Source: Betaproteobacteria bacterium (GTDB lineage Bacteria > Pseudomonadota > Gammaproteobacteria > Burkholderiales > SG8-41). From it: a stretch of 39,841 nt of DNA. Both the position numbers and the translations under genes were made by a program. Within the stretch, counting starts at the first letter, position 1. Each line of letters begins with the position of its first letter. Below are positions 10,071-39,345 of this stretch, one piece after another. Below the pieces are notes generated by a model. That model worked only from the letters and a program-made list of their open reading frames with translations, searched no databases and had not been told where the DNA came from. Location: contig JACQOI010000200.1 in assembly GCA_016202615.1 (NCBI GenBank), positions 1-39,841 on the forward strand. Reading direction: 5' to 3'.

Positions 10071-10074
10071 CGGC

Positions 10075-10274
10075 CTAGGAGTTTGTCGGACTTAGCCCCG
10101 ACAAACTCCTATTGCAAAACCGGAGCCAGTAGAAATGCAGAAGAAGATAACAGATATGCGGATTTGCCCGCGCTTTTCCCCAAATTCGACCGTTTCGAGT
10201 AAGTTTATTATGAATGGTCAGCCGGTTTTGCTTTTGGCAGTCTGTACGGATTGTTAAGTCCGACAGGCTGCTAG
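10075..10274 (+). mobile_element. Non-autonomous MITE-like element, copy 1 (200 bp)
   Basis: CTAG-GAGTTTGTCGGACTTA ... TAAGTCCGACAGGCTG-CTAG imperfect terminal inverted repeats; no transposase; near-identical copy at 10378. Confidence 0.8.
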
Positions 10275-10373
10275 TTGCCTCATTTAAAAATCTGACCGAA
10301 ATGTGCTTCGTTGCCTCACGCAAAAATCTGAGTGAAATGTTTCATTGCAGGCGTGCCGGGGCGTGGCTACAAT
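10275..10373 (+). promoter_or_regulatory. Sigma70-like promoter preceded by two 30-bp direct repeats (putative operators)
   Basis: Repeats at 10275-10304 and 10311-10340 (25/30 identical); TTGCAG (10345-10350)-N17-TACAAT (10368-10373). Confidence 0.6.
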
Positions 10374-10377
10374 CCAC

Positions 10378-10580
10378 CTAGAAGGAGTTTGTCGGACTTA
10401 GCGCCGAAAAACTCCTAATGCAAAACCGGGGCCAGTAGAATTGCAGAAGAGGATAACAGATATGCGAATTTGCCCGCGCTTTTCCCCAAATTCGACCGTT
10501 TCGAGTGGGTTTATTATGAATGGTCAGCCGGTTTTGCTTTTAGCAGCCTGTACGGACTGTTAAGTCCGACAGGCTGCTAG
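10378..10580 (+). mobile_element. Non-autonomous MITE-like element, copy 2 (203 bp)
   Basis: By hand alignment 12 substitutions plus a 3-nt insertion versus copy 1; CTAG at both ends. Confidence 0.8.
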
Positions 10581-10608
10581 CGGCGACGATCGATCAAAGA
10601 GGTTCGAC

Positions 10609-11547
10609 ATAGACAGGCTCTGGGCCATGGAAGTTTTCGTTCGCGTTGCGGAGTGCGGGAGTTTTTCGCGCGCGGCCGAATCGCTCGACTTGGCCAACGC
10701 CACGGTCACCACCTGCGTGCGCAACCTCGAGCGGCACCTGGACGTGACGCTGATCAACCGCGACACGCGGCGCTTGCGCCTCACCGAAGAGGGCCAGATG
10801 TACCTTCCCCGTGCCCGTGAGCTGCTCCAGTCCGTGGCGCGAACGGAAGAGGAGGTGCGCACGAGGCTTGGCGAACTGCGCGGGTGGCTTCACATCGAAA
10901 CCCCGATTTCGGTCGGCCATGCCCTGCTCTGCCCGGCGCTGCCCGCTTTCGCCCAGCGCTATCCGGAAATCTCCGCCGCGATCACGCTGACCAACCAGCC
11001 GCATCACATGATCGAGCGCGGAATCGACGTGGCCATCCGCATGGACCATGTGGAGAATGCCGACCTGGTCGCGCGCCCGGTCTACGAAAGCCGATATGTC
11101 ATCTGCTGCACGCCGGCCCTGGCGCAGACGCTGCCCGCGCACCCCGCGCAGCTCAACCCGCGGCGCTGCATCGGGATCCTCGCGGAAGAGCGTCGCCATG
11201 CGAATGCCTGGGTGCTGGAGAAGGGCCAAGAGCGGCTGGAGATCCGGCCGGGCGGGTCGCTGCATTTCAACACCAGCGATGCGCTGCTGCTCGCCGCGCG
11301 CAGCGGCGTCGGCGTGGCGCACGTGCTCGACATCTTCGCCCATCGCCTGCTCGACAGCGGCGAACTGGCGCAGGTGTATCCCGACTGGACAACGACCGCC
11401 AAGACGTTCTACGCGGTGACCGTCAAGGGCCGCGCCAGTTCGGCCAAGGCGCGCGCTTTCACCGACTTCCTGGTCGAGGTACTCGACTCCGAACGCCGAC
11501 TCAGCGCAAAACGCGCGGTGTCGGTCCGCGCGCTCGGCAAACACTGA
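10609..11547 (+). CDS. LysR-type transcriptional regulator (expected start codon reads ATA at 10609; next in-frame ATG at 10627)
   Basis: (M)DRLWAMEVFVRVAECGSFSRAAESL...LERHLDVTLINRDTRRLRLTEEG HTH; AAGAGG RBS precedes 10609. Confidence 0.92.
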   Translation: MDRLWAMEVFVRVAECGSFSRAAESLDLANATVTTCVRNLERHLDVTLINRDTRRLRLTEEGQMYLPRARELLQSVARTEEEVRTRLGELRGWLHIETPISVGHALLCPALPAFAQRYPEISAAITLTNQPHHMIERGIDVAIRMDHVENADLVARPVYESRYVICCTPALAQTLPAHPAQLNPRRCIGILAEERRHANAWVLEKGQERLEIRPGGSLHFNTSDALLLAARSGVGVAHVLDIFAHRLLDSGELAQVYPDWTTTAKTFYAVTVKGRASSAKARAFTDFLVEVLDSERRLSAKRAVSVRALGKH

Positions 11548-11560
11548 GCAGCGGCAACCC

Positions 11561-12955
11561 TCAGGCAGCCTGCGCTGCCGCCGCGGCTGCTACGGCGCTT
11601 CGCGCCGCCAGCCGCCCGAACACCGCCGCCTTGCCGAGGGCAGAGCCGGTCATATAGGCACCCCCATGGAAGCCGCCGACCACCTCCCCCGCGGCATATA
11701 GGCCGGGAATGCACTCCCCGAACACGTCGATCACGCGCATCGCGTGGTCGATGCGAAGGCCGCAGTAAGTCCCGAACACGGCCGCGGTGGACGGGTAGGC
11801 ATAGAAAGGACCCTGCTCGATGCGCCGCAGCTCGCCGTGGTTGTGCACCAGCGTCTTGCGGCCGAATTGCGGATCGTGCCCGGCGTCGGCTCCCCGGTTG
11901 TACCTCTCGACGGTCTCGCGCAGCGCATCCCAAGGCACCTCGATCTGCCGCGCCAGCGCTTCGAGCGTGTCGGCCTTCACGATCAGCCCCTCCTCCATGC
12001 GGCGGCCGAAATCGAGAATGCGCACGCGGTCATCGCCGCTTTCGAAAATCGGCTGGTCGAAAATCTGGTAGGCCGTGTGGTAGGACTGGCGCATCACCGC
12101 GTCGCCGAGCAGCTTGTAGGAGATCGATTCGTCAACGAAGCGCAAGCCCTCCTGGTTCACTGCGATCGCCCCCTTGTAGACCGCCAGGCAGCTGTGGTTA
12201 TTGCGGGTGTCGACGGGGTGCTTGCCGAAGGTGCCCTTGATGTAGGCCATGTCGCGCATGTCGGCGCCCAGCTTCCAGGCCATCAGCAGCCCGTCGCCGA
12301 CATTGCCGCTGCCGCCGACGAACACGGCCTCCGCGTACTGCGGCGCGAAACGGTTCACGAGCTCCGGGTTGCGGCAGAAACCGCCGCTCGCCAGCACCAC
12401 CCCGTCGCTGGTCTGGATCGTCATGTCCCCGTCCGGTCCCACCGCCGTGACGCCGGTGACCGGCGAAGCCTCGTCATGGCGCAGCAGGCGCTTCGCCGGG
12501 GTCGACATCAGCACGGTGACGCGGCCGCTCGCCCGGCAGCGCGCGGCGAGGAGCCGCACCATGTCCGCCGGGTCCACGGTGTGGACGCGGGGCACGGACT
12601 GGCCGGACGACGCCTCGATCGACTGGCTGAACTCCACGCCATGCGCACGCAGCCAGCGGTACGTCTCCAGCTGGTGGTCGACGTAGGCATCGACCAGCGA
12701 AGGATCGTTGTCGTGCTGGCCGGTTTCGATCAGGTCGCGCTTCAGTAGCGCATTGGAATCCTCCACGCCGCAGGCCTGCTGGACATCGGTTCCGGCGAAC
12801 GCCAGGCAGCCGCCGCTCATCGCGGAGGAGCCGCCGATGGCGTCGAGCTTCTCGATCAGCGTCGCTTCGGCCCCCTGCTCGGCCGCTTCCAGCGCCGCCG
12901 AAAAGCCGGCCAAGCCGCCGCCCACGACGAGGAGTTGGGTGCGCAGTTGCTTCAT
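11561..12955 (-). CDS. FAD-dependent oxidoreductase, flavocytochrome c / fumarate reductase flavoprotein-like
   Basis: VVGGGLAG, EK..IGGSSAMSGG, VLASGGF, GLYAAGEVVGGFHG..YMTGSAL; start at 12955 from ATGA overlap with the upstream gene. Confidence 0.88.
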   Translation of the reverse strand: MKQLRTQLLVVGGGLAGFSAALEAAEQGAEATLIEKLDAIGGSSAMSGGCLAFAGTDVQQACGVEDSNALLKRDLIETGQHDNDPSLVDAYVDHQLETYRWLRAHGVEFSQSIEASSGQSVPRVHTVDPADMVRLLAARCRASGRVTVLMSTPAKRLLRHDEASPVTGVTAVGPDGDMTIQTSDGVVLASGGFCRNPELVNRFAPQYAEAVFVGGSGNVGDGLLMAWKLGADMRDMAYIKGTFGKHPVDTRNNHSCLAVYKGAIAVNQEGLRFVDESISYKLLGDAVMRQSYHTAYQIFDQPIFESGDDRVRILDFGRRMEEGLIVKADTLEALARQIEVPWDALRETVERYNRGADAGHDPQFGRKTLVHNHGELRRIEQGPFYAYPSTAAVFGTYCGLRIDHAMRVIDVFGECIPGLYAAGEVVGGFHGGAYMTGSALGKAAVFGRLAARSAVAAAAAAQAA

Positions 12956-13758
12956 CGTGTGTTCGCCCGGCTGTAAAAATCGAGGAGTTCGGCGACGCGC
13001 TCGCGCGGCGGCGGCTCGTTGAAGTAGCCGATCTGGCAACGTTCCACCCCGCTTTGGCGCTTCAGGTCCACCAGCATTTCCGCATGCTTGATCCAGCAGG
13101 ACAGCGAATCGAGCACCGGCACGCCGTCGACGCTCGACATGCCTTGGCTTGCAAGCAGCACGCACAGCGGGGCCTCGCCGGGGATGATCACTTCGGCGCC
13201 GCGCGCGATCTGCGCGCGCGCCGCCGTCCGGAATCGCTCGATCAAGGGCGCGGGCTCGGAAAAACCCTGCAGCACGTCATTGAAGCGGAAGCCGACATCC
13301 GTCACTCCCGCCAGCCGGTCCGCCATGCCGTAGCGGCGGGCGTTGTCGGCGATCTGGTGGGTCAGTTCGCTGATGAAGACCATCACGGCGAAGCGCGATC
13401 CGAGCAGGCACGATGTCAGCATCGCCGACTCGCCGTAGCCCACGACGGGGATGCCGAGCATCGAGCGGATTTCCCTCAGTGCCGGGTCCGGCAGCGTGCT
13501 GATGGCATAGGCATCGAAGCCTTCCCGCTCGGCGGCGAGTCCGGCCTCGATGAACTGGATCGAGTGCAGGTGCTGCAATGCTGCGTGGCGGATATCGTTT
13601 CCGGGATAGTTCGTGCGGTAGGTGCCCGGCCGCATGCCATGCATGACGATCTCGGTGCCGGGCCGCGCGACGCGATGGAAGTGCGCTTGCAGCGCCCTGT
13701 CGTAGGCGCCGAGGTCGGAAAGAACGGTGAAGCTCTGGTGCCAGATGCGAATTGTCAT
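12952..13758 (-). CDS. Asp/Glu/hydantoin racemase family protein (atypical active site)
   Basis: AEREGFDA...DPALREIRS.L.IPVVGYGESAM; GAEVIIPG. Confidence 0.8.
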   Translation of the reverse strand: MTIRIWHQSFTVLSDLGAYDRALQAHFHRVARPGTEIVMHGMRPGTYRTNYPGNDIRHAALQHLHSIQFIEAGLAAEREGFDAYAISTLPDPALREIRSMLGIPVVGYGESAMLTSCLLGSRFAVMVFISELTHQIADNARRYGMADRLAGVTDVGFRFNDVLQGFSEPAPLIERFRTAARAQIARGAEVIIPGEAPLCVLLASQGMSSVDGVPVLDSLSCWIKHAEMLVDLKRQSGVERCQIGYFNEPPPRERVAELLDFYSRANTR

Positions 13759-13805
13759 GTTGTCGTTTGGAAATAAAGATCAGGAATCGGATCCGGCGCG
13801 CCCGC

Positions 13806-14585
13806 TCAGTCGCACAGCATCCCGCCGTTGACGTCGAGGATTTCGCCCGTGATGAAGCCGGCGTCGCGCGAGGCCAGGAACAGCACCGCGTTCGCAACGT
13901 CCGCGGGCGTTCCCATGCGCCCTGCCGGAATAAGGGCTTTCAGTTGCGGCGGAAAGGAGGTCGTCATCGGCGTGGCGATTGGACCCGGCGCGATGGCATT
14001 GACGGTAATGCCGTATGGCGCCAGCTCCTTGGCCAGGAAACCCGTCATCACGTGCACGCCGGCCTTGGAGACGCCATACGCGACGTTGCCCGCGCACTCC
14101 TGCTCCGCGGCGTCGATCCACGGCCTCGCGTTGCCGGCGTTCTTGCCCACGACCGATCCGATGTTGATGATGCGGCCGAAACCCTGCCGCTTCATGGAGG
14201 GCATCACCGCTTGGCAGGCGAGGAAGGCGCCCTTGAGGTTTATGTCGATCACGCGGTCCCACTCGCTCTCGGCGAGCGACTCGGCGCTGCCGAACGAGGC
14301 CACGCCGGCCACGTTGACCAGAAGGTCCACCGGGCCGACGAGCAACCCGATCCGCTCCACCAGCGCGGCGATGGCGCGCCGGTCCGTGACGTCCAGGCGC
14401 ACCGGCGCCGTGGCCAACGCAGGCGCGTCGGCGCCTCTCCAATCGCCCGTTGCCGCCCTGTCCGCGCAAACGACGGAAGCGCCGCGCTCACGCAGCACGT
14501 CGGCAACGGCGCTGCCGATCACACCGCTGCCGCCCGTGACCAGCGCGACGCGCCCGGCAAACGCCGAAGAGGACGACTCGCTCAT
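13806..14585 (-). CDS. SDR family oxidoreductase
   Basis: TGGSGVIG, NVAG, YGVSK, VNAIAPG, ITGEILDVNGG. Confidence 0.92.
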   Translation of the reverse strand: MSESSSSAFAGRVALVTGGSGVIGSAVADVLRERGASVVCADRAATGDWRGADAPALATAPVRLDVTDRRAIAALVERIGLLVGPVDLLVNVAGVASFGSAESLAESEWDRVIDINLKGAFLACQAVMPSMKRQGFGRIINIGSVVGKNAGNARPWIDAAEQECAGNVAYGVSKAGVHVMTGFLAKELAPYGITVNAIAPGPIATPMTTSFPPQLKALIPAGRMGTPADVANAVLFLASRDAGFITGEILDVNGGMLCD

Positions 14586-16042
14586 GCCACGTTCCGCCGG
14601 CGGCGCGCAGCTGCCACGCCGCCTGCGATGCGGCCGAACACGAGCCCTTTCAGCACCGAGGTGGCCCCGGTGTAGTTGCCGTAATAGAGCCCGGCGGTTT
14701 CACCCGCCGCGTAAAGGCCCGGTATCGGGTCGCCATCGCCATTCAGCACGCGCGCGGACTCGTCGATCTTCAGGCCCCCGAAAGTGAACACGTTGGCCGA
14801 GATGATGGGGTAGGCATGGAAGGGCCCTTCCTCGATCGGCGTGGCCCAGTTCGATTTCGGCGGCTCGAGGCAGCGTGTGGCGAGGCCATCGACTTCCAGC
14901 GGCCGCCATTCGCCGGCAACGCAGGCCGCGTTGTACTCGCGCACCGTGGCTTCCAGTGCCGGGGCGGGCACGCCGATCTTTTCGGCCAGCGCGGCGATGG
15001 TTGAACCCGTCACCGGCGGCTTGTCCGTGCGGATGCCCAGGCGATAGTTGGGTACGCGCTGATGCCTCGCATCGAGCACGACCCAGGCCGTGCCGCCGCG
15101 CTGTTCGTAGATGCGCCGCGTGATCCGCTCGTACCAGGCATCCACGGTGCCCGGGGCCTCATCGGTGAATCGCTTGCCGTCCAGGTTCACCAGGATGCCG
15201 TAGGGAAAGATGAAGACCGAGGGCTCGGCGATGCCCGAGCGCGGGTCCACCGGCTCGGCATGGTAGCTGCCGAAATCGCCGCACGCGGCCGCGCCAACGT
15301 CGAGCGCCATGCGGATGCCTTCCCCGCGGTTGTAGTAACCGCCCTTGCAGATCGGCCGCAGATACACGGAGCGCGGGCCCACGTAACGCGTCAGCATCTC
15401 GGCATTGCCTTCGAAACCGCCGCACGCGAGCACCACCTCGCCCCGCAGCCTCGTCTGCCCCTTGCCGCGCACACGAACCCGCAAGCCCGTCACCTGTCCC
15501 CCGTCATCCAGCTCCAGCGCGGTGGCGGCGGTTTCGTAAAAGAACTGCACGCCCATCGATTCCGCGCGCGCCGCCAGGGCCTCAACCAGCGCCTGGCCGC
15601 CGCCGACCGGCAACAACCTCGGCTGCGATTTAGTGAGGAACTGAGTGGGCAGGAACTCGAAGCGCACACCCATCCCCTCGAGCCATTCGATGGTGCCGCC
15701 CGCGCTATTGGCGAGGCGCCCGATGATCCCGGGGTCGGCGATGCTCAAGGCGCGCGTCAGGGGCGAGCGTTGCGATGCCGACGCAACCGCGTCTTCCACC
15801 ATTTCCGGGTCCACGCTGCCCGAGCCGTTCTCGGCCAGGTGCGTCTCGAAATCGTCGGTCACTTCCCGGTGGCTCTTCATGCGCAAATAGGCTTCGGTGT
15901 AGCGGCTCTGCCCGCCCCGCTCCTCCCTCGACGCCCGCTCGACCAACGCCACGCGCGCGCCGGCCTGCGCGGCGGCCACGGCCGAGGAAAGCCCCGCCAC
16001 GCCGCAGCCCGCCACCACCACATCGAAATCCTGAGTCGCCAT
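14582..16042 (-). CDS. FAD-dependent oxidoreductase, TcuA (tricarballylate dehydrogenase)-like
   Basis: VAGCGVAG, RGGQSRYT, VLACGGFEGN, HAEPVDPRS, GKRFTDE, FTFGGLKID, GLYAAGE. Confidence 0.85.
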   Translation of the reverse strand: MATQDFDVVVAGCGVAGLSSAVAAAQAGARVALVERASREERGGQSRYTEAYLRMKSHREVTDDFETHLAENGSGSVDPEMVEDAVASASQRSPLTRALSIADPGIIGRLANSAGGTIEWLEGMGVRFEFLPTQFLTKSQPRLLPVGGGQALVEALAARAESMGVQFFYETAATALELDDGGQVTGLRVRVRGKGQTRLRGEVVLACGGFEGNAEMLTRYVGPRSVYLRPICKGGYYNRGEGIRMALDVGAAACGDFGSYHAEPVDPRSGIAEPSVFIFPYGILVNLDGKRFTDEAPGTVDAWYERITRRIYEQRGGTAWVVLDARHQRVPNYRLGIRTDKPPVTGSTIAALAEKIGVPAPALEATVREYNAACVAGEWRPLEVDGLATRCLEPPKSNWATPIEEGPFHAYPIISANVFTFGGLKIDESARVLNGDGDPIPGLYAAGETAGLYYGNYTGATSVLKGLVFGRIAGGVAAARRRRNVA

Positions 16043-16198
16043 GACTTGTTTCCTTCGGTTGAGATAGGCGAATCATCAGCGCCAATGCCGAATGGCGAAA
16101 GACAATGAATGCGAAAACTGGTTTCAGCAAAACCGGCTGGCCCTTCGCCCTGCTTCGCCTTACAGTCGCGCCAACAAGACAACACTGAGGATGAAACC

Positions 16199-16978
16199 AT
16201 GCGAATGGCCAACAAGTTCGGCATCGTGACGGCCGGCGCTTCCGGAATGGGGCGCGCCGGGGCAGTGCGCTTCGCCGCCGAAGGCGCGGCAGTTGCCGTC
16301 ATCGACATCGATGAGGCGAAGGCGCGCGAGACCGTGCGTACAATCACCGCGGCGGGCGGGCAGGCGTTCGCACTGGCGGGCGACCTCATGGACGAAGACT
16401 TCGCCCGCGGCATCGTGCACGAGACGAAGAAGCGCTTCGGTCACCTCGATTTCCTCTGGGCCCACGCGGGCCATCCTTCCGTCTCGCGAGTCGAGGGGCT
16501 GGATCTCAAGGAATTCGACATAGCGATGAACCTGAACGTGCGCGCCGTGATGGCGAGCACGATCGAAGCCATTCCCTTCATGCGCGAACGCGGCGGCGGC
16601 AGTATCCTCTACACCTCGTCCACCTCCGGCCTTTTCGGCTCGCCCTTCAGCCCGCTTTATTCCGTGGCCAAGTGGGGCCTGATCGGGCTCGCGCGCTCGC
16701 TTGCCAAGCGCTATGGGCCTGAGAACATCCGTGTGAACGTGGTCTGCCCCGGCACCACCGACACCCCCATGCTGCGCGTGCTCGTCTCGCGCCCCGACGA
16801 GACCGCCACCAAGGGCAAGGACATCGACGAGCTGATCAGGGTGCGCGGCTCAGGCAGTCCGCTCGGGCGCCTGGCGCGACCCGAGGAAATCGCCAACGCG
16901 GCGCTTTTCCTGCTCTCCGACGAGGCCTCGTTCATCACCGGCGCCGCCTTGCCGGTGGACGGCGGCAAGACCGCCTGA
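16199..16978 (+). CDS. SDR family oxidoreductase
   Basis: TAGASGMG, YSVAK, VNVVCPG, FITGAALPVDGG; start at ATG 16199 after GAGG. Confidence 0.9.
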   Translation: MRMANKFGIVTAGASGMGRAGAVRFAAEGAAVAVIDIDEAKARETVRTITAAGGQAFALAGDLMDEDFARGIVHETKKRFGHLDFLWAHAGHPSVSRVEGLDLKEFDIAMNLNVRAVMASTIEAIPFMRERGGGSILYTSSTSGLFGSPFSPLYSVAKWGLIGLARSLAKRYGPENIRVNVVCPGTTDTPMLRVLVSRPDETATKGKDIDELIRVRGSGSPLGRLARPEEIANAALFLLSDEASFITGAALPVDGGKTA

Positions 16979-16989
16979 GGACGGCGCGC

Positions 16990-17778
16990 TTGCTGCTCCA
17001 GGACTACAACACCGTCGTCACCGGCGCGGCGCGCGGGCTCGGCGCCGCGGCGGCCCGTCGCTTCGTGGCCGAGGGCGCCCGCACGGTGGTATCCGACATG
17101 GACGAAGCCGGCGCGCTCGAATGCGCGCGCAGCATCGACCCCACGGGCCGGCGCGCCATCGGCGTGCGCTGCGACGTCTCAAGCCATGAGGATTGCGCTC
17201 GGCTGGTGGCCACCGCCGAGGAATTCTTCGGTGCCCCCATCGACGTCTTCCTCGCGCATGCGGGCGTGGGCTTCGTCGGGCGGCTGACCGAGGTCGAGGT
17301 GGAGCGCATCCGACGCGCCATCGAGGTCAACGTGTTGGGCTCGGTGTTCTCGGCGCAGGCCGCGCTGCACAGCCTCACGAAGAGTCCGCGCGCGAGCTTG
17401 CTCTTCACGAGCTCGCTGCAGGGCGTGATGGGGCGGCCGCTGCGAAGCGTCTACACCGCGTCGAAGCACGCCATCGTCGGCCTGGTGAAAGGACTGGCGC
17501 TGGAGTTCGGCCCGCAGGGCGTGCGCGTCAACGCCATCGCGCCCGCCGCCACCGACACGCCCCACTTGCGCGCGATGCTGGCGGCCACGACCGCCGACGT
17601 GGACGAAGCGGTGCGAAACGTCGCGGCCTCGATGCCGCTGGGTTGGCTGCCCACGCCCGAGGACTTCGCCGACGCGGCCGTCTTCCTCGCCTCCCCCGCC
17701 GCGCGCTCGATCACCGGCCACACGCTGCTGCTCGACAGCGGCGCCGCCGCCGGCATCTTCAAGCGCGAACCCGCCTAG
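16990..17778 (+). CDS. SDR family oxidoreductase
   Basis: TGAARGLG, YTASK, VRVNAIAP; TTG start after GAGGA. Confidence 0.9.
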   Translation: MLLQDYNTVVTGAARGLGAAAARRFVAEGARTVVSDMDEAGALECARSIDPTGRRAIGVRCDVSSHEDCARLVATAEEFFGAPIDVFLAHAGVGFVGRLTEVEVERIRRAIEVNVLGSVFSAQAALHSLTKSPRASLLFTSSLQGVMGRPLRSVYTASKHAIVGLVKGLALEFGPQGVRVNAIAPAATDTPHLRAMLAATTADVDEAVRNVAASMPLGWLPTPEDFADAAVFLASPAARSITGHTLLLDSGAAAGIFKREPA

Positions 17779-17899
17779 CGCACCACGAGGCGCACTGGCC
17801 ACTCAGGCCACGCGGACTGGGTGGGCGAAATGCCCGGCACAGCATGCTCAGCGCGGCAGCCGCGAGCAGGCCGAGGCGCATGCGCTGGGCCGGTTTCAT
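17775..17899 (-). pseudogene. 5' remnant of a Bug/TctC gene
   Basis: GGGAG RBS, signal-like MKPAQRMRLGLLAAAALSML, then after a frameshift TQSAWPEWPVRLVV (compare Bug WPxRPVRLVV); cut off at the convergent SDR stop. Confidence 0.65.
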
Positions 17900-17917
17900 A
17901 GGCAAACTCCCTTCAGG

Positions 17918-19630
17918 TCATGACCTCAGCAGCGAATCCCAGTTGCTGGGCAGCTTCACTTCCCGGGTGGTCAGCCGCGTGTACCCCGAGTCCAGAGTCT
18001 TGATGCGGTTGCGCCCCGGGTCCCCGCAGACCACGATGTCGATGTACTCCGGTCCCGGCATGATCTGGATCATGTCATCCGGTCCGACATCGTAGCTCTT
18101 GGGGAAGGTGCCCAGGCGGATCTTCTCCTCGATGCCGTGCACCTCGGCCATCGCGTACTTGAGCTCCCATTCCATGTAGCTGCGCGGGACCTTGGCGTTC
18201 TCGTACACGTACTGCCGGATGTCGTCCTTCGAGTAGCCGGCCTCGGCCAGCACCTTCGCCACCGGCGGCGCCAGCAGGAACACCATGTCGGTGACGAAAC
18301 CGGTGAGTCCGCGTTCGGAGAAAAGCGCCAGCGCGGGCTTGCGGACCGCATCACGGCACATCTGCTCCAACGCGCACTGCGCCCCCGTCTTGTCGTCGCG
18401 CGTGTAAGGCGAGGGCGAGAAGCCCCAGTTCATGGTCGTGTTCACCGAGACCGTGCTGGTGTTGCGGTCGAAGCCCCGCTCCACACGCAGCGGTTCCCAA
18501 GGGTTGAGGTCGTCGTTCTCGGCGAAGGCGAAGCTGATGGGATAGCCGAAGGTGCCCATCTGGTTCTTCGCGGGGCGGTACTCGCCGATGTTGCGGATGA
18601 TGAGGCCCAGGGCGCGCCCCAGCGCGGGGTTGGCGCCGCGCGAGATGAGGCCCGCGCCGGAGTTGAAGCCCAGCTGCTTGACGATGGGGCCGCTGACGAA
18701 GACGTAGGGCACGATGCCCCAGGTCGTGCCGATGTTGTCGAGGTTGAACCGGTCTTCCTGCAAGGCTTCCGCGATGGCGATCAGCAGCGGCATGGTCTGC
18801 GGCTTGCACCCCGCCATGACGCCGTTGGCCGCGATGTTCCACACTGTCGCGCGCAGGTTGGCCTGCGGCAAAACCGCGATGACCTCATCGGGCGAGCGGT
18901 CGCTGTACTTCAGGAACAATTCGACGCGCTCCATCGTCGGCGGCACGATGGGCAGGCCATCGGTCCACTCCTTCTCGTGGAAATGGTCGTTGACCTGCTC
19001 GAAGCTGCCGGTGCAGACGATGGCTTTCGAGTTCCAGACGTCGGCCTTGCCGGGCGCCTGCGACTTGACCGGCTTGGTCAGAGCGCTGACGATCCTTTCG
19101 AACAGCACGTTCTTGACCTTGTCGCGGATTTCCGCATGGTCTACACCCACGGCGCCTGGGTATTCGACTAGGGGCACGTCGGGGACACCTGCGGCCTTGG
19201 CCGCCAGCTGGCCCACGATGTTGAACCCCGGGAGGGTGACGACGGCCGAGGGGATGCCGAGGACCTTCTCCGCTTCTGCTGCAGGCCGCACCGCGGCCGG
19301 TGTGCAGGTCCCTCAGCCACCGTTGCCGGAGATGACGGCGTCTGCGCCCTTTTCCTTCAAGCCCGCGATGATCTGCTGCAGCACTTGGCGCTGGTACGAG
19401 GGCGTGCCCTTGAGCGAGGCGTAGGGCAGCTCGGTGTAGGGGACGATCTTCACGTCGGGGAAGCGTTCCTTGAGCAACTCGCGATAGATGGGGAACATGA
19501 TGTCCCCCTTGAAGTCTTCGTTCCAGACTTCGCACACGGTCTTGCCGTTCAGCGTATCGAGCCTCTTGGCGAGGTTTTTCTGCTGGACGGACTCGCCCCC
19601 GGTGGGGCTGATGACAGCTTGGGATTCCAT
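17918..19630 (-). CDS. UGSC-family selenoprotein (U-G-T-C motif), 570 aa by UGA readthrough at 19315-19313
   Basis: ORF 19313..19630 ends ISGNGG-TGA and continues in frame as GTCTPAAVRPAAEAEK into ORF 17918..19291; UxxC motif; hairpin just 3' of the UGA; WTDGLPIVPPT domain follows. Confidence 0.85.
19279..19312 (-). promoter_or_regulatory. Putative bacterial SECIS element
   Basis: After the UGA: GGGACCTGCA-CACCG-GCCG-CGGTG-CGGCCTGCAG; 5-bp upper stem and a G-initiated tetraloop starting 16 nt after the UGA. Confidence 0.55.
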
Positions 19631-19745
19631 GGGGTGTTCTTTTCGTTGGCTGTAGAGGGCTGTGACGATTCATGCTAGACCGTGGCCGCGCGGGAAAAGG
19701 CGAGGCCGCGGAAAACTCCATTCGCTTTTTCTGCTACTTCTTCCC

Positions 19746-20732
19746 CTATTTCGCCGCCTGCCCCTTGACCCCGGCCTGCTTCGCAATCGCGTTCCACTTT
19801 GCCACCTGCCCGCGCACATAGGCCGAGGCCTCTTCGGGCGTGCTGGTGGTGGCCGATGTCTTCGCCGAGCTGGCCAGGCGCTCGACGGTGGCGGGCTGCG
19901 TGAGCACCTTGCGAAAAGCCGCATTGAGCTGGTTGACGATCTCCCTTGACGTGCCCGCGGGCACAAGGATGGCGTACCACACGGAGTCGCCCATGCTGGG
20001 AAAGCCAGCTTCGGCCATCGTGGGCACATCGGCAAGACCCGGATGGCGCCCGTCGCCGGTAACCCCGAGCGCTTTCACCTTGTTGGCCTTGATCTGCGGC
20101 TCGGCGGCGGGCATGGCGACCAGTGACATCTGGATCTCGCCCGACATGATCGCGGTCAGCGCTTCCGGCGTGCCCTTGAAGGGAACATGAACGATGTCCA
20201 GCCCGCGTTCGCTCTTCAGCAGTTCGCCCGTGAGGTGGCCGATGCTGCCGACACCGGCGGACGCGTAGTTCAGCTTTCCCGGACTGGCCTTCGCCATAGC
20301 CACGAGTTCGGCCATCGAATTCGCCGGGAACGAAGACGACACGACCAGCACCAATTTTTGCAGGCCCATCATGGTGACGGCCTCGAAATCCTTCACCGGG
20401 TCGAAAGGCAGCTCCATGAGGCTGGGCAGTACCGAAAAGCTCAGGCTCGCGAGGAAAAGCGTGTATCCGTCGGGGCGCGACTTCGCCGCGAAGTTGGCGC
20501 CGATGCTGCCCCCCGCGCCGGGCTTGTTCTCGACCACCACCGGCTGGCCCAAGGCCTCGCGCAGCGCGGGCGCCATCGCGCGCGCCGTCAGGTCGCTGCC
20601 GCTGCCGGCGGGAAAAGGCGAGACCAGCGTCACCAGCCGGCTCGGAAATGCCTGGGCCAGCGAAGGACCGGCCGGAAGGGCGAAAATGGCGGCGCTGCAC
20701 AAGAGCGCGGCCAGGAATGATTTGCGTCGCAC
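19746..20732 (-). CDS. Bug/TctC substrate-binding protein
   Basis: FPSRLVTLVSPFPAGSGSD, VENKPGAGG, HVPFKG; GTG start at 20732 after AGGAG. The track's 677-aa extension is antisense to the racemase. Confidence 0.9.
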   Translation of the reverse strand: MRRKSFLAALLCSAAIFALPAGPSLAQAFPSRLVTLVSPFPAGSGSDLTARAMAPALREALGQPVVVENKPGAGGSIGANFAAKSRPDGYTLFLASLSFSVLPSLMELPFDPVKDFEAVTMMGLQKLVLVVSSSFPANSMAELVAMAKASPGKLNYASAGVGSIGHLTGELLKSERGLDIVHVPFKGTPEALTAIMSGEIQMSLVAMPAAEPQIKANKVKALGVTGDGRHPGLADVPTMAEAGFPSMGDSVWYAILVPAGTSREIVNQLNAAFRKVLTQPATVERLASSAKTSATTSTPEEASAYVRGQVAKWNAIAKQAGVKGQAAK

Positions 20733-21002
20733 GGGGAAGTCTCCTCTAAAGTCATTCGTCGGCCGCTGCCAAGGTAGGTGGGTCCAGGGATGACGTAAAG
20801 CAGCTGCCCCTGAAAACATTGTTTGTATTAACCGAATGAGCCTACGCCGAAGTTGGAGCCTCCGGGCGGGTAGCACACGACCAGCCGGACGCCAGGGTGG
20901 GCGTGAAGTCACTTTTCGCAATTTCCGAATGCGCCGGGCGCCCGTCGCGCCTACCATCTCAAGCACCCCCGAGCTTTTTGGGCCACCGGCCCACGCGAAG
21001 GA

Positions 21003-21851
21003 ATGCGATTGCGAATCTGGCACCAGAGCTTCACCGACCTCGATGCGTTTCCCCTTTACCGCGAAACGCTGCGCGAGCACGGGCGCCGAGTGATGGAAGG
21101 CGAGGCGGAGGTCGTCGTCCACGGCCTGCGCCCGGGCACCTACCCGGCCGGCATTGCGCCGATGGACGTGAACAGCATCGGTGGCCTGCGCATGCTCAAC
21201 GAACAGCAGGTCTGCGAAGCCGCCCTGGCCGCCGAGGCCGCCGGCTACGACGCGCTCGCGCTGGGCTGTTTCTTCGACCCCGCGCTGCACCAGGCGCGAT
21301 CGCTGGTCAACATCCCGGTGGTGAGCCTGACGGAATCGTGCATGCTGACCGCGTGCTCGCTGGGCCGGCGCTTTGCGGTAATCTCGCTCACCGATTTCCA
21401 GAAAATGTTGACGGAAGACCTCGCTGCGTCCTATGGTCTCGCCGGGCGGATGGCGGGAGTGGTCGCGATGTCTCCTGCCGTACGCCTGTTCGACCTGGAA
21501 GGCAGCGGCGCCGTCGTCGAGTCGATCAAGGAGCGTTTCGTCGCCTCCTGCCGTGCGGCGCTGCAGCTCGGCGCGGAGGTCATCATCCCCGGCGACGGCG
21601 TGCTCAACGAGTTCCTGGTGCGCCATCGCATGCTGTCCGTGAACGGCGCGGTAGTGCTCGACTCGCTCGGCGTCCTTTTCCATCATGCGGCGTTCTTCGC
21701 GCGGGCGAGAGCCAGCGGCAGCCTTGACGTTAGCCGGCGGTTGTTGTACGCCAAGCCCACTCAACCGATGCTCGCGCACTCACAACAGTTCTTTGCCGCG
21801 CTGCAGCGCGTCGAGCAGGAGTTTTCAGGGAGCGCACCTACACCGCTCTGA
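21003..21851 (+). CDS. Asp/Glu/hydantoin racemase family protein
   Basis: AEAAGYDALALGCFFDPAL..ARSLVNIPVV; paralogue of 12952..13758 (shared RIWHQSFT). Confidence 0.82.
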   Translation: MRLRIWHQSFTDLDAFPLYRETLREHGRRVMEGEAEVVVHGLRPGTYPAGIAPMDVNSIGGLRMLNEQQVCEAALAAEAAGYDALALGCFFDPALHQARSLVNIPVVSLTESCMLTACSLGRRFAVISLTDFQKMLTEDLAASYGLAGRMAGVVAMSPAVRLFDLEGSGAVVESIKERFVASCRAALQLGAEVIIPGDGVLNEFLVRHRMLSVNGAVVLDSLGVLFHHAAFFARARASGSLDVSRRLLYAKPTQPMLAHSQQFFAALQRVEQEFSGSAPTPL

Positions 21852-21914
21852 CAGGCGGCGGGACAGACTTTGACACACGTTTTATATTCAACTAAGAGTG
21901 GAGGAGCAGAGAAC

Positions 21915-22883: not shown

Positions 22884-22908
22884 GACCACCACGTATAAGG
22901 AATGAGAT

Positions 22909-25788: not shown

Positions 25789-25869
25789 TCGAATCAGGCG
25801 GGCGGTGGCCCTTGCTCGCTGCTGCGTCTCATGATTCGGGCCCAGATCAGGCTGGACTTTCCCGCATTC

Positions 25870-26832: not shown

Positions 26833-26944
26833 GATTTTCCTCCTCTTGGACAACCGTGTGTGCCAGGCACGCCGACACTTCATACAACCATTAGTACGAT
26901 GCCACAACCCCAGGCAAATAGCGCATGACTCGATTTTTTTTGGC

Positions 26945-27032
26945 GAATTTTTCCCGCTTGCCTGCCTTGACGCAAGGGGGGTAGAGTATAGCCCTGTTGG
27001 TGGCATCATGGTGATGGCCGCCTGAGTAGTTA
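26945..27032 (+). promoter_or_regulatory. 88-bp promoter/leader cassette, copy A
   Basis: TTGCCT-N18-TAGAGT, then hairpin GGTGGCATCATGGTGATGGCCGCC; inverted copy at 29057-29144. Confidence 0.7.
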
Positions 27033-27052
27033 CCCTGAAAAGGAGCCGTAAT

Positions 27053-28012: not shown

Positions 28013-28051
28013 GCCGGTTGATGACCAGCCGAGGTAGCGAACGAGGTGCTC

Positions 28052-28096
28052 CTAGGAGTTTGTCGGACTTAGCCCCGACGAACTCCTAACGCAAAA
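28052..28096 (+). mobile_element. Solo left end (hairpin) of the CTAG MITE family
   Basis: CTAGGAGTTTGTCGGACTTAGCCCCGACGAACTCCTAACGCAAAA matches 10075-10119; lies between convergent genes. Confidence 0.8.
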
Positions 28097-28109
28097 GCGG
28101 CCCGCTGAG

Positions 28110-29018
28110 TCAGCTCGGCCAAGCTTCGAGGAGATCGCCCACCGCGTCGCCAGCCGCCTCCATTACCAAATCGCCGCCGTAGAAGAATGCCCAGTAGAGC
28201 GTTTGGACCACCTGGTGTCGCTTCACTCCGAGCCGCATCGCGTGGAGGACCGAGCTTCTCATCAGGTCGCGCTGCAAGCGAACCGTCGCAACGTTGAGCG
28301 TGTACAGCGGCGCGAGCTGGGCCGGCAGAGCGTTTCCGAGAGCGCGCTCGTAGCGAATCCGCTGCGTCTTATACGCAGCTGGATGCAGCTTCGCCCAGAG
28401 ATCGACATGTCGCGGAGGAGCGCCATGCGCCGCCGTGTGCCAGGCCTTGATCGCGGCGACGTCGGCGGCACTCAGCTCGTTTGTCGAGAGGTCCATGCCC
28501 GAGCGGAAAGCGGCGGGGTTCGGCACCCAGTCCGCCGGCCACTCGTACGTAGACGGGGCATCGTCCGGCCACGACCTCAGGTACTCGTCGCTCAGTGTTG
28601 CGACGGCGTTGATGCTGGCCGGTCCTCCGCTGAGAAACGCGTAGGCAAATGTGTCCATGACCACGGCCTTCGACATCCCCAGGCGGCGAGCGGCGAGGAT
28701 CTCGTAGAGGATGCCCCTCTCGTTCGCGATCACCGCATAGAGGTGGAGGAAGAGCAGCACCGACACGCCGAACGGCAGGGCAACCCCATCCCGTGACGCC
28801 TCGATGAACGTGAACCACCGCCGGTAATCCTTGAACTGCCTGGGGAGATGCTCCATGAGGAAGGGAACGAACGGGACGAGCTTCAGGTCGCCGCTCCCGT
28901 GGAACCGGTTGTACCAAGCCTCGAACGCGGCTTTCTCCTCGGGCGAGAACCGATCCTGGTCCCACTTGGCGTTCATGCCGAGGTCGAAGAAGCTCGGCTC
29001 AGGCCGCTGGCCGCTCAT
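28110..29018 (-). CDS. Hypothetical protein with two CMD/AhpD-like repeats, no CxxC
   Basis: Internal repeat: EILAARRLGMSKAVVMDTFAYAFLSGG versus SVLHAMRLGVKRHQVVQTLYWAFFYGG; GAGGAG RBS. Confidence 0.65.
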   Translation of the reverse strand: MSGQRPEPSFFDLGMNAKWDQDRFSPEEKAAFEAWYNRFHGSGDLKLVPFVPFLMEHLPRQFKDYRRWFTFIEASRDGVALPFGVSVLLFLHLYAVIANERGILYEILAARRLGMSKAVVMDTFAYAFLSGGPASINAVATLSDEYLRSWPDDAPSTYEWPADWVPNPAAFRSGMDLSTNELSAADVAAIKAWHTAAHGAPPRHVDLWAKLHPAAYKTQRIRYERALGNALPAQLAPLYTLNVATVRLQRDLMRSSVLHAMRLGVKRHQVVQTLYWAFFYGGDLVMEAAGDAVGDLLEAWPS

Positions 29019-29056: not shown

Positions 29057-29144
29057 TAACTACTCAGGGGGCCATCACCATGATGCCGCCAACAGGGCGA
29101 TACTCTACCGCCCTCTCCCGCGTCAAGGCAAGCGAGAAAAATTC
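29057..29144 (-). promoter_or_regulatory. 88-bp promoter/leader cassette, copy B
   Basis: Reverse complement aligns with 26945-27032 (48/51 identical from TAGAGT to GTTA). Confidence 0.7.
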
Positions 29145-36618: not shown

Positions 36619-38079
36619 ATGACAGAAATCAAAGTCATCGACACCACTTTGCGCGACGCGCACCAGTCGTTGTGGGCCACGCGCATGACCACTGCCATGA
36701 TGCTGTCGGTCGCCGCACGGATGGACCGCATCGGATTCGAGGCGATCGACCTTCCAAGTGGAAATGTTCACGTCGATGTCGGCGTGCGCTACTTGAAGGA
36801 GAACCCGTGGGAAAAAGTGCGGCTGCTGTGCCAGGCCATTACTCGTACCCCGATGTTTGGGGGAGTCCTCAGCAGGAGCGGCGTTGGCTTCCACGTAGTT
36901 CCGGATGACATCCCGTTGTTGTGGATCGAACGGCTCGTCGCGAACGGCATGCGGCGTTTCAGGACATTTGATCCGCTGGCCGACCTCGACTCCATTGTTC
37001 CCCTCTTGCGGTTCGCGAAGGGACTCGGCGCATACACGATCGGCGCATTGGCTTTCGGCCACAGTCCGGTTCATACCGACGAACTTTACATGCAAAAGAC
37101 CAAAGAACTGATCGAACGCGCAGGGGTTGATGCGATCATGCTCAAGGACGCGGGCGGGCTGCTCACGCCTGACCGCATCCGCACGCTGGTTCCGGCAATG
37201 AAGAAAGTGATGGGCAAGCTGCCCCTGGAGCTGCACAGCCATTGCATTACCGGCCTTGCGCCGCTGGTGTATCTCGAGGGCGTCAAGCTCGGCGTCGACC
37301 ATGTGCACACTTCGATCGCCCCGCTCGCCAACGGTGAGGCGCAGCCTGCGACACAGACGATCGTCCGCAATCTCCGCGGCATGGGCTACACGGTCAACGT
37401 CGATGACGCGCTGATCGACGAAGTCGGCGAGCACTTCCGCAGGATCGCCGTCCAGGAAGGCAAGCCGCTCGGAGTGCCGCTTGAATACGATGCGTTCCAT
37501 TTCGAGCACCAGGTGCCCGGGGGGATGCAGAGCAATTTCAGGTTCCAGCTCGCGCAAGCCGGGCTCTCCCACAAGCTCGACGAAGTGCTGCACGAATGCG
37601 CGCGCATCCGCGGGGAACTCGGGTGGCCGATCATGATCACGCCGTTTTCCCAGATTGTCGGCACGCAAGCGGTGCTCAACGTGGTGCATGGCGAGCGCTA
37701 CCGGATCGTGCCGGACGAGGTAAAAAAATACGCGCTCGGTTATTATGGCAAACTGCTGGCGCCGGCCGATCCCGACGTGCGCGATCGGATCATCGCGAAT
37801 GGCTCGCAGTCGATTCCTCTCGAACCTCCGCCGCCCGAGCCCGCGGTGCCGGGGCTGCGCAAGAAATATCCGAACGTGAGCGACGAGGAGCGTTTGCTGC
37901 GCTACTCGTATGCCGGAACGCAGGTGGACGAGATGCTGGCGGCCGGGCCTATTCAGACCGAATATTATTTCGAGAAGCCGATAGTTCGACTGCTCAACGA
38001 GCTGGCGAAACGGCGCAAGCCGGCGCGCATTTACATTGAAAAAGGTTCGACCCGACTCGAACTCGGTCCTGCACGTTGA
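36619..38079 (+). CDS. Pyruvate carboxylase B / oxaloacetate decarboxylase alpha-like carboxyltransferase, paralogue 2
   Basis: DTTLRDAHQS, ENPWEK, LKDAGG, HSH, HQVPGGM, ITPFSQ; ATG 36619 after GGGGAG. Confidence 0.9.
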   Translation: MTEIKVIDTTLRDAHQSLWATRMTTAMMLSVAARMDRIGFEAIDLPSGNVHVDVGVRYLKENPWEKVRLLCQAITRTPMFGGVLSRSGVGFHVVPDDIPLLWIERLVANGMRRFRTFDPLADLDSIVPLLRFAKGLGAYTIGALAFGHSPVHTDELYMQKTKELIERAGVDAIMLKDAGGLLTPDRIRTLVPAMKKVMGKLPLELHSHCITGLAPLVYLEGVKLGVDHVHTSIAPLANGEAQPATQTIVRNLRGMGYTVNVDDALIDEVGEHFRRIAVQEGKPLGVPLEYDAFHFEHQVPGGMQSNFRFQLAQAGLSHKLDEVLHECARIRGELGWPIMITPFSQIVGTQAVLNVVHGERYRIVPDEVKKYALGYYGKLLAPADPDVRDRIIANGSQSIPLEPPPPEPAVPGLRKKYPNVSDEERLLRYSYAGTQVDEMLAAGPIQTEYYFEKPIVRLLNELAKRRKPARIYIEKGSTRLELGPAR

Positions 38080-38179
38080 TGCGCGGGCGTCGGGCGTCGC
38101 GCGGCGAGCTGCGTCGCAAACGAAGCGCTGGCCGATCACCTCGGCCGCCACCGTGTCGCGGCGTGGATCAGCCCGGGGA

Positions 38180-39178
38180 TCAGTATTGTTCGAACATGCG
38201 TTGTATGTCGTCCGGTTCGCTTGTTCGAGTCAGCGCCAACGATAGCAGCAGCGCCGCTTTTTGCGGTGAGAGGTTATCGGCGGCGACCATGCCCGGTTCG
38301 TGATAGTTACTTTCGCGGACGACGCGTCCCTCGCCCACTCTGGAGCTGCGCACCACGACGGCCCGGCCCGCGGCGGCGATATCGGCGCACTCCTTCGCGA
38401 GATCGCCGGACGAGCCCGCGCCTACGCCGGCAACGACTAAGCCCTTGGCCCCAAGCCCGCACGCTGCTTCCGCCATTCCGCGCTGTGCGCCCGCATAGAT
38501 GTACAGAATGTCCACCCGGGGCAGGCGCTCGACGCTCCCCAGGCTGAACTCGCTGTCGACCGTGTGTCGCCGTATCGGTGCGCGGTAAAACACGATCTTG
38601 TCTGCGTCCGCATATCCCAGCAGGCCGACGTCACGGCTGCGAAACGTATGCACATGGTAAGTGTTGGTTTTGGTCACGTCCCGGGCGGAATTGATTTCGC
38701 CGTTCGCGACCACCACCGCGCCTTTGCCGCGCGCTTCCGGTTGAGCCGCAACCCTGCACGCGTCCAGCAGATTGAGCGGTGCGTCGGTGCTTAGCGCGGT
38801 AAAGGGCCGCTGCGCGCCGGTCACTACGATCGGCTTGACGCTGCGCACAGTCAACGTCAGGAAATAGGCCGTCTCTTCCAGGGTGTTGGTGCCATGCACG
38901 AAAACGACGCCGTCCACCTCGGGAAACTGCAACAGCTCGTTCACGCGCGCGGCGAGCTTGCGCACATCTTCGAGCGTTGCTGTTTCGTACGGGTTGCCCT
39001 CGTCCACTTCGACGCACGCAACCTGCGCGATCTCCGGAACCGCCGCCAGCAGCTCCTGGCCAGTCATGCGCGGACGGCCGCTGTGCCGGTACTTTAGGAA
39101 GTCCATACGGTCTTTACCCTGGCTCGGCAATGTGGCCGGGCCCACCAACAAGCGGATGCGCGGCAAGTCTCTCTGCAT
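38180..39178 (-). CDS. Asparaginase/glutaminase family protein (divergent motifs)
   Basis: HGTNTLEETAY, KPIVVTGAQRP, ARDVTK, DNLSPQKA; ATG 39178 after AAGGA. Confidence 0.87.
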   Translation of the reverse strand: MQRDLPRIRLLVGPATLPSQGKDRMDFLKYRHSGRPRMTGQELLAAVPEIAQVACVEVDEGNPYETATLEDVRKLAARVNELLQFPEVDGVVFVHGTNTLEETAYFLTLTVRSVKPIVVTGAQRPFTALSTDAPLNLLDACRVAAQPEARGKGAVVVANGEINSARDVTKTNTYHVHTFRSRDVGLLGYADADKIVFYRAPIRRHTVDSEFSLGSVERLPRVDILYIYAGAQRGMAEAACGLGAKGLVVAGVGAGSSGDLAKECADIAAAGRAVVVRSSRVGEGRVVRESNYHEPGMVAADNLSPQKAALLLSLALTRTSEPDDIQRMFEQY

Positions 39179-39269
39179 TTTTCGTCCTTGACCTGCCCGA
39201 TCTTTCGATCCAGGCATTAGAGAATAAATAGTCTACGGCATTGTGCTTGCGGTTGCGACTACGGGCTGC

Positions 39270-39345
39270 CTAGCAGCCTGTCGGACTTAGCATTTCGAAC
39301 CGGCCGCTAAGGAGTTTGTCCGACCCAAGTCCGACAAACTCCTAG
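39270..39345 (-). mobile_element. 76-bp minimal derivative of the CTAG MITE family (both ends, interior missing), inverted orientation
   Basis: CTAGCAGCCTGTCGGACTTAG ... AAGGAGTTTGTCCGACCCAAGTCCGACAAACTCCTAG. Confidence 0.8.

Follow-up and report, generated by a model that had tools for sequence, protein, structure and literature searches.

Miniature elements with the ends of an IS1182-type insertion sequence form a very abundant, CTAG-flanked family in a Betaproteobacteria draft genome

In the draft genome of a Betaproteobacteria bacterium (GenBank assembly GCA_016202615.1, here G000), the contig JACQOI010000200.1 (C119) contains four loci of a short repeat that is bordered by the tetranucleotide CTAG; the whole 39,841 nucleotides of this contig that were analysed are called the window. 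Our work suggests that these loci are miniature inverted-repeat transposable elements (MITEs) of one very abundant family, that they have the ends of an insertion sequence (IS) of the IS1182 type and that they are moved in trans by copies of this IS, and we give this reading a probability of about 0.87. It was observed that MITEs and IS have ends in common and are both flanked by CTAG, that G000 contains ends of the IS, that hundreds of copies in discrete size classes are dispersed in it, some of them nearly identical, and that insertions differ between two related species; from the sequences we infer the mobilisation in trans. G000 comprises 400 contigs and 4.23 Mb, has 60.9% G+C and is 80% complete. 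It was compared with congeneric genomes such as G011, G003 and G004, the latter a draft of about 670 contigs, within a genus sample of 29 genomes.

The core of the repeat, TGTCGGACTTA, is present seven times in the window at no more than one mismatch, and six of these occurrences are exact, as compared to a mean of 0.26 and a maximum of one in dinucleotide shuffles. The four loci are found where a sequence-only reading of this DNA had placed them. The genome-wide copy-number check by BLASTN revealed a family far larger than the window suggests: the four loci gave 1,482 alignments in G000, among them dozens of full-length copies of the first element, E1 (10075-10274). A BLAST with the second, E2 (10378-10580), as query gave 42 matches that start in its first nine bases and reach approximately position 200. 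A census of termini that carry the core with at most one mismatch yielded 468 ends, 226 of the left type (GAGTT followed by the core), 212 of the right type (CAGCC followed by the core) and 30 that were unclassed. The four bases preceding them read CTAG in 297 cases, CCAG in 60 and CTGG in 24. With looser matching, the termini form 357 clusters, 320 of which are robust loci (76 per Mb). Short terminus pairs nearly always (112 of 124) join one left with one right end, and 149 complete left-to-right elements were counted. They span 38 to 293 bp, apart from one span of 506 bp that is the pair of E1 and E2, and fall into size classes of 58-69 bp (17 copies), 74-78 bp (30), 112-116 bp (24), 149-159 bp (15), 196-203 bp (32), 208-212 bp (15) and 224-228 bp (5). 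The family contributes to the fragmentation of the assembly, as 80 of the 800 contig ends of G000 are located no more than 250 bp from a locus.

An autonomous element with the same ends, as it had been proposed to look for, is present in a congener. The locus L030 (G011, contig C127) is an IS of 1,577 bp with a single open reading frame (ORF) of 451 amino acids and the right-type 16-mer at both ends; these ends read CAGCCTGTCGGACTTAGC and, on the other strand, CAGCCTGTCGGACTTGAG, and CTAG precedes each of them. A copy with 72% identity and the same left end was found in G003 (L034). Both transposases pass the NCBIfam model NF033551 for the IS1182 family, with 363.5 bits (L030) and 369.3 bits at a cut-off of 270, and both contain the Pfam domains DUF772, DDE_Tnp_1 and DDE_Tnp_1_6. 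The IS1182 family is characterized by one ORF, a length of about 1.3-1.9 kb, short inverted repeats and a palindromic target. With its 1,577 bp, one ORF, 16-bp repeats and CTAG on both sides, the IS in L030 fits this description, and the resemblance to IS1182 termini that had been suggested earlier proved right. The right-kind element end is identical to the 16-bp inverted repeat of this ISAzo1-like IS, the left kind differs from it at three of 16 positions, and the first 22 bases of one locus of the window, a 76-bp mini-form, are those of the left end of the IS in L030. In G000 itself, BLAST identified the right 119 bp of the IS on contig C339 (6166-6284, 91.6% identity) and a left IS end with the first transposase codons on contig C272 (14050-14173, 76% identity). 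Both are preceded by CTAG and both run off the contig end. Thus, the IS is present in the source organism, but its body is unassembled.

The use of CTAG by this IS extends beyond the genus. The 291 relatives of the transposase that were found in a collection of species-representative genomes belong to Beta-, Alpha- and Gammaproteobacteria and to some bins that are labelled otherwise, and 80 of these loci were kept for a survey: 54 have both termini at a distance of 1.46-1.74 kb with CTAG before each, 13 more form pairs whose flank on one side is not CTAG (in seven of them apparently owing to one and the same mis-pairing), 12 have a single end and one has none. In multi-copy cases, for example at six loci of Thauera phenylacetica B4P, the sequences beyond the CTAG are unrelated. 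Among annotated plasmids, the nearest named relative of the IS is ISAzo1 from plasmid 2 of Aromatoleum aromaticum EbN1 (NC_006824.1), with 65.7% amino acid identity over the whole transposase, ends that read CAGCGTGTCGGACT with a difference at one of 14 compared bases, and CTAG on both sides. Unlike the MITEs studied here, ISAzo1 is an autonomous IS.

The elements of the family have no gene of their own. An internal ORF of 33 codons is intact in 20 of the 33 copies of the main 200-bp subfamily, its substitutions are distributed without bias over the three codon positions (106, 119 and 95), and a coding potential was rejected. Such gene-free MITEs would depend on movement in trans, in which a DDE transposase of about 450 amino acids, encoded by the IS, would recognise the element ends and insert the element at the rare palindrome CTAG, leaving CTAG on each side; IS copies in the same cell would provide this protein. 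The broken IS ends in the same genome make this the natural explanation. Thus, of the earlier proposal of a MITE family mobilised in trans, the non-autonomous family and its IS1182-type ends can be confirmed, and for the movement itself the IS ends in G000 provide the argument.

Each end of an element is a small foldback. The left-kind end is GAGTTTGTCGGACTTA and the right-kind end CAGCCTGTCGGACTTA; the two 16-mers agree at 13 positions, and their inner 11 bases are identical. The left module consists of GAGTTTGTCGG, a loop and CCGACAAACTC, the right module of CAGCCTGTCGGACT, a loop and AGTCCGTACAGGCTG, so that in both cases the terminal repeat is followed by its own inverted copy. A variable core is closed by a pair of conserved sequences beside the foldbacks, GCAAAACCGG and, on the opposite side, CCGGTTTTGC, and E1 as single-stranded DNA folds into three hairpin domains (-42.2 kcal/mol, z = -7.9). 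The size classes can be described as combinations of four modules, the left foldback (A), the left (B) and right (C) parts of the core and the right foldback (D): the approximate lengths are 200 bp for A-B-C-D, 159 bp for A-B-D, 113 bp for A-C-D, 76 bp for A-D and 224 bp for an arrangement of A, B, D', part of C and D. Other subfamilies of about 210 bp have the same ends and different cores. The junctions between modules read CTAA, CTAG, CTGG, TTAG or CTAT. Bare foldbacks of 30-33 bp with CTAG on both sides exist as well (e. g. C110:11567, C14:6455 and C233:3530), and G000 has 47 loci with a left foldback only and fewer solo right foldbacks. In the 33 copies mentioned above, the divergence from the consensus is 2-5% in the outer approximately 50 bases of each side and 7-21% in the core.

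Several observations weigh against the proposed origin and mobilisation of the family. A complete gene for the partner transposase was not detected in G000, where tblastn returned only a fragment of 63 amino acids (46% identity, contig C236) and a protein search for the partner transposase at E<=1e-20 returned nothing; with the IS seen as broken ends, an active partner in this cell is thus only presumed. The left-type end departs from the IS repeat at three of its first five bases, no IS with left-type ends was found, and the MITEs and the IS have no common sequence past the 16 bases. Perfect CTAG on both sides is present in only 78 of the 149 complete elements. Moreover, MITEs and intact IS copies occur mostly in different genomes. 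The 30-base left foldback (at most two mismatches) was counted 203 times in G000, 126 times in G004 and once in G011, the remaining 26 genomes having none, and a reversed control pattern had no match in any of the 29. Full or nearly full transposase genes (at least 62% identity) are present in G011, G008, G006, G003 and G015, and fragments in G004, G005, G006 and G015. Thus, the MITE-rich G000 and G004 show IS fragments only, and of the genomes with an intact IS, G011 has a single left foldback and G008, G006, G003 and G015 have none. Finally, a clean empty site was not obtained: the best case, C282 compared with G004, has an unfilled site that reads CGAG and eight extra bases.

The candidates for a different partner in G000 were rejected. 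A DDE_Tnp_1 element on contig C67 has different ends, and an IS630-like gene and a DUF772 fragment on contig C100 have no element core nearby. Seven pairs of distant ends, 957-5,174 bp apart, enclose ordinary genes, and judged by translation only, none of these is a recognisable transposase. In the window no relative of the partner transposase was found either, as the sequence-only reading had stated.

CTAG is very rare in G000: there are 2,069 sites as compared to 15,007 expected from the base composition (ratio 0.14), and 331 of them, about one in six, flank an element terminus. As CTAG is palindromic, a duplication of all four bases and one of the central TA look identical. Among 304 reliable termini with TA at flank positions 2 and 3, the outer base is not C in 18 and the inner base is not G in three (p=0.0015), and none of 13 complete elements with off-consensus flanks has the same 4-mer on both sides. 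These counts lean towards a duplication of TA in which the G and C next to it are part of the element, whereas papers on the IS1182 family report 4 bp. ISPse1 was captured with a trap plasmid and carries inverted repeats of 16 bp as well as a direct repeat of 4 bp (PMC3281130), ISPsy36 uses the palindromic target GGCC (PMC8027508), and IS1272 is reported to replace hairpins without duplication (PMC5678879).

A side observation concerns the bases next to the elements. Of the 149 left ends, 30 have a flank that changed from CTAG to CCAG (context CTAGG to CCAGG), and these are found in every size class; at the right ends, with the context CTAGC, the same change is seen in 11 of 149 elements and the other transition in nine. 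Very-short-patch repair would act in the direction of CTAGG to CCAGG, but the 80%-complete G000 yielded no Vsr domain.

It is tempting to speculate that the 200-bp elements were built by accretion of foldback mini-elements, and that this IS1182 clade, as IS630 does, duplicates only the central TA of CTAG; we regard this linked idea as tentative and give it less than even odds. The smallest members are two inverted repeats of the IS back to back, flanked by CTAG. Since an insertion is bordered by CTAG at both ends and G000 has very few other CTAG sites, new insertions would tend to land beside old ones, and a composite of neighbouring insertions could then move as one unit by its outermost ends. 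If true, this would account for the CTAG-like junctions, for the discrete modular size classes and for end modules that are far better conserved than the cores. As a separate observation, a right end is missing from 18 left halves in G000, 15 of which end at element positions 74-87, in or just after a GAAGAGGATAACAGATATG stretch. The idea that such truncated left halves regularly donate ribosome-binding sites was rejected, as only two or three of the 18 abut a convincing gene start.

The comparison of G000 and G004 demonstrates that insertions occurred repeatedly, both before and after the two species split. Both flanks could be matched in G000 for six of 23 G004 loci with flanks, the divergence of the two genomes being too high for base-exact empty sites. 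One of these loci has the same insertion at the orthologous site in both species (C166 in G000 and C35 in G004), and five (C98, C245, C282, C281 and C322) are filled in G004 and have no element in G000, where the flanking genes are adjacent. At a seventh locus, C283, which was matched by one flank, both genomes carry an element at different positions. In addition, G000 contains near-identical deletion derivatives at separate loci: four 113-bp copies that differ by one or two bases and an identical pair of 58 bp. The consensus of the 200-bp class differs between the two genomes at three positions (31 copies from G000 and 16 from G004, the latter from 20 fetched loci; other subfamilies are included), and the rplJ-rplL-rpoB region has 85% identity. 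A horizontal transfer between G000 and G004 was considered from these two values; however, as one orthologous insertion is shared, the family is at least as old as the split, and a transfer is not needed.

For the elements of the window itself, matches to their flanks were searched in G004, G002, G005, G021 and G011, and none was found at the blastn level. The element-free stretch 10600-28040 has at most 80% identity to G004, G021, G011, G003 and G001, mostly to paralogues of TctC. Contigs from four public runs that cover window positions 9000-28999 end where the elements begin; the joints listed lie inside elements, and among them no contig spans an empty site. Such contigs cannot bridge these repeats, and this result does not imply that empty sites are absent. 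A scan of metagenome contigs for an empty site with a 27-base flank of E1 had no match. In the public runs X1, X5, X6 and X8, the summed contig depth over E1 and E2 (window 9667-11000) was 186-10,697 and that of neighbouring single-copy bins about 1.4-39; this depth adds up every organism of a sample and should not be read as a copy number, and it indicates that the family or close relatives are very abundant in these groundwater metagenomes.

Two further observations were made at C245, one of the sites that differ between the species. At the corresponding G004 locus (L016, contig C137), compared with C245:15040-15110, the element lies inside the last codons of a gene, and the encoded protein ends with ...WQPLGVCRT* in G004 and with ...WQPLVTR* in G000; the element ends hold stop codons in all three frames within about 37 bases. 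In the intergenic region in which G004 has the CTAG element, G000 has a long inverted repeat at about 15170-15290 (GTGTAGCGCAGGCGCCCTCGCCTGC and its complement), and this may be another palindromic element.

Three other explanations for the presence of the elements start from their shape, their target or their conservation. The end modules are palindromes of 30-33 bp that are also found alone, as in the 47 left-only loci and the fewer solo right ones, and G000 has ten matches to Y1_Tnp (PF01797); the foldbacks might therefore be REP/REPIN-like palindromes that are moved by a Y1 (RAYT) transposase rather than by a DDE transposase of the IS1182 type. We consider this highly improbable: the arms of the palindromes are the exact inverted repeat of the IS and have the CTAG flanks of the IS, none of the seven Y1 loci checked has an element core within 1.5 kb, and a separate family of GTAG-type palindromes (GTAGGGTGCGC, 313 matches at no more than one mismatch) fits a RAYT better. 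The textbook example of elements that insert at CTAG and duplicate its central TA is the IS630 family, and an IS630-family transposase as the mover would agree with the flank counts presented above, i. e. 18 vs three deviating bases and no duplicated off-consensus 4-mer, as well as with the presence of DDE_3 (IS630-type) genes in G000 and G004. However, the transposase families were searched in G000 and four congeners, each fetched locus being scanned for the element core, and none of the nine DDE_3 loci fetched (from G000, G004 and G003) holds the core within the fetched flanks, whereas the IS1182-type IS carries the element ends exactly; an IS630-type mover is almost certainly not the explanation. 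Finally, the elements may, besides being mobile, have been kept by the host as structured signals in RNA or DNA, e. g. as terminators, start-site cassettes or stabilisers of mRNA. The low divergence of the terminal 50 bases as compared to the core, the very stable fold of E1 and the insertion kept at the same site in two species would fit this idea, and so would a truncated copy at about position 10047 of C343 that supplies a Shine-Dalgarno-like motif and the ATG of an ORF of 337 amino acids. The conservation of the ends is accounted for equally well by a requirement to remain mobilisable, and by the existence of subfamilies with the same ends and different cores. Moreover, the elements have no orientation bias with respect to neighbouring genes (40 vs 29), Rfam at gathering thresholds has no match in the window, and a consensus scan of the E1/E2 region detected no promoter-like site and terminator-like sites that are weak (three vs 1.3 expected). 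A host function as a reason for their maintenance is thus unlikely.

The sequence-only reading had also placed the elements at module junctions and had suggested that they help to assemble or shuffle a mosaic of modules composed of TctC/Bug-type receptors and enzymes. Recombination between copies would be one route to this. Hundreds of dispersed repeats with at least 90% identity are in principle possible substrates for homologous recombination; at locus L002 of G004, compared with C283 of G000, elements of different class and position are located just downstream of the same conserved gene and the sequences further downstream differ, and at six of the 23 G004 loci only one flank was matched in G000. 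One-flank cases are, however, uninformative in drafts of 400 and about 670 contigs, and at all five two-flank loci that differ the flanking genes are adjacent with and without the element. Gene positions in G000 were taken from our own crude gene caller (3,857 genes called, 81% coding). About 319 of these genes are TctC/Bug-like according to tblastn with six window proteins, which is a very large paralogue family for a 4.2-Mb draft, so that any intergenic feature will often be near one. Indeed, 45 of 237 element loci adjoin a TctC-like gene, and 18.3% are expected from intergenic length (p=0.74); likewise, the three occupied gaps of the window are the number predicted by the genome mean. Neither the type of gap nor the orientation is preferred: complete elements are found in tandem, divergent and convergent gaps in 69, 31 and 21 cases, for shares of gap length of 58, 23 and 19%, and in tandem gaps 40 point with the genes and 29 against them. 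Neither the claim on module junctions nor that on shuffling is thus borne out; we judge a role of the elements in building the mosaic to be improbable, and the family does not explain the origin of the many transporter-plus-enzyme modules.

The MITEs rather behave as selfish DNA that is placed by where CTAG occurs, and this is often the stop codon of a gene. By the crude caller, 222 of the 320 loci are fully intergenic, 69 partly overlap a call and 29 are inside one; some of these overlaps are likely to be with false ORFs. As the target CTAG contains the stop codon TAG, the elements sit at gene ends: at 71 of 388 outer termini with a TAG flank, this TAG terminates a long ORF that reads towards the element and has a high G+C content at third positions. 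Such stop codons also make up 19% of the free CTAG sites.

Families with hundreds of copies in a small genome are known from the Correia elements of Neisseria, inverted-repeat elements of 100-150 bp with size classes that arose by internal deletion. They resemble the family described here in copy number and size classes, their ends are different and the family is unrelated, and for the present family the cognate transposase was identified. MITEs tied to the IS1182 family have been described in print, so that the kind is known (PMC11578231, PMC3852290). MITEPye1 of Paracoccus yeei has ends like those of IS1182-family elements (ISPye18) and 4-bp direct repeats; like the family in G000 it is non-autonomous, without ORF and intergenic, has IS1182-type terminal inverted repeats and predicted stem-loops and is presumed to be moved in trans (PMC11578231). 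MITEPye1, however, is present in one to three copies per chromosome (PMC11578231), as compared to about 320 loci in the 4.2-Mb draft, and unlike it the family in G000 has two types of self-folding ends and many modular size classes. The MITEs related to ISMac2 (IS1182 family) in Methanosarcina acetivorans, with 160 and 169 bp and 14 and seven copies, are likewise short and multi-copy, their partner was assigned by the ends, and one of the two groups is given with a direct repeat of 4 bp; they differ in their archaeal host and their much lower copy number, and a CTAG target or foldback modules are not mentioned in the passage on them (PMC3852290). IS1272 of staphylococci shares the IS1182 family, 16-bp inverted repeats and a link with palindromic DNA, but it is reported to replace varied hairpin targets without a target duplication, whereas the elements in G000 have a fixed tetranucleotide on both sides (PMC5678879). 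As a text string the 15-base terminus was not found in the literature, a search that did not extend to ISfinder. What is new here is this member of the kind, its copy number and its modular foldback build. The family adds a very high-copy, modular case to the few MITE families tied to IS1182, and it is a large natural sample on how the poorly studied IS1182 family picks and duplicates its target. With a tenth of the contig ends close to a locus, about one sixth of the CTAG sites occupied and many stop codons abutted, it also affects assembly and annotation.

The four loci of the window represent different forms of the family, and all of them are intergenic, as claimed before: they lie between ORFs carrying Pfam domains, in a scan that took in 62 of the 116 ORFs of at least 100 amino acids. 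E1, a full-length element of 200 bp on the plus strand (10075-10274), consists of CTAG (10075-10078), the left foldback (10079-10108), CTAT, a core at about 10113-10233, the right foldback (10238-10270) and CTAG (10271-10274). The second full-length copy, E2 (10378-10580, plus strand, 203 bp), follows 103 bp downstream in the same orientation; it has CTAG at 10378-10381 and at 10577-10580, and the element proper starts at 10385 (GAGTTT), separated from the left CTAG by three extra bases (CTAGAAG). E1 and E2 are 93.9% identical over 198 bp, the spacer between them is unique in sequence except for two short matches, and the pair lies between the stop codon of the gene for ETF-alpha (10070) and a LysR gene (10627). 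The solo left-end module (28052-28100, plus strand) comprises CTAG (28052-28055), a 30-bp foldback (28056-28085), CTAA (28086-28089) and about 11 bases of core, with no right end after it. One of the 47 left-only loci, it has 91.8% identity to positions 1-49 of E1 and is located between the convergent TctC gene at 27053-28012 (plus strand) and an ORF at 28110-29018 (minus strand). The 76-bp two-ended mini-form (39270-39345, minus strand), a member of the 74-78-bp class, begins with the outer CTAG (39270-39273) and a right-type terminus at 39274, which is followed by a degenerate second arm, CTAA (39307-39310), a G, the left foldback (39312-39341) and the other outer CTAG (39342-39345); it lies upstream of an asparaginase gene (38180-39217, minus strand). 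The statement that all loci are flanked by CTAG is therefore not exact, as it does not hold for the left side of E2 and for the inner side of the solo module, where the sequence is CTAA.

Other repeats and mobile elements were noted in passing. The GTAG-type palindromes (GTAGGGTGCGC) resemble REP/REPIN elements; examples are C283:14303-14530 and copies at about position 1042 of C197, 14867 of C374 and 28019 of C182. At several loci, copies of this family are present inside the foldback loops of CTAG elements, always directly after GGACTT(A). The unrelated IS on contig C67 (approximately 15300-16720, locus L018 730-2140) has the ends CTTCTTGCAAAACT and an ORF of the DDE_Tnp_1/DUF772 type that is seemingly in two overlapping frames, and it abuts a 112-bp element with right-type ends on both sides. 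The 337-amino-acid ORF at C343 has a signal-peptide-like N-terminus. Finally, a repeat of about 58 bp is present twice in the window, at 26975-27032 (plus strand) and 29057-29114 (minus strand); the first copy closely precedes the TctC gene at 27053, the second the ORF at 28110-29018 (minus strand). It has no Rfam match at gathering thresholds, and copies with 89-94% identity are found on contigs C45, C297, C151, C360 and C392, and matches with 85-89% at several places in G011 and at one in G004. As it contains a short hairpin and a TTGACG...TATAGC pair, it resembles a common promoter or leader.

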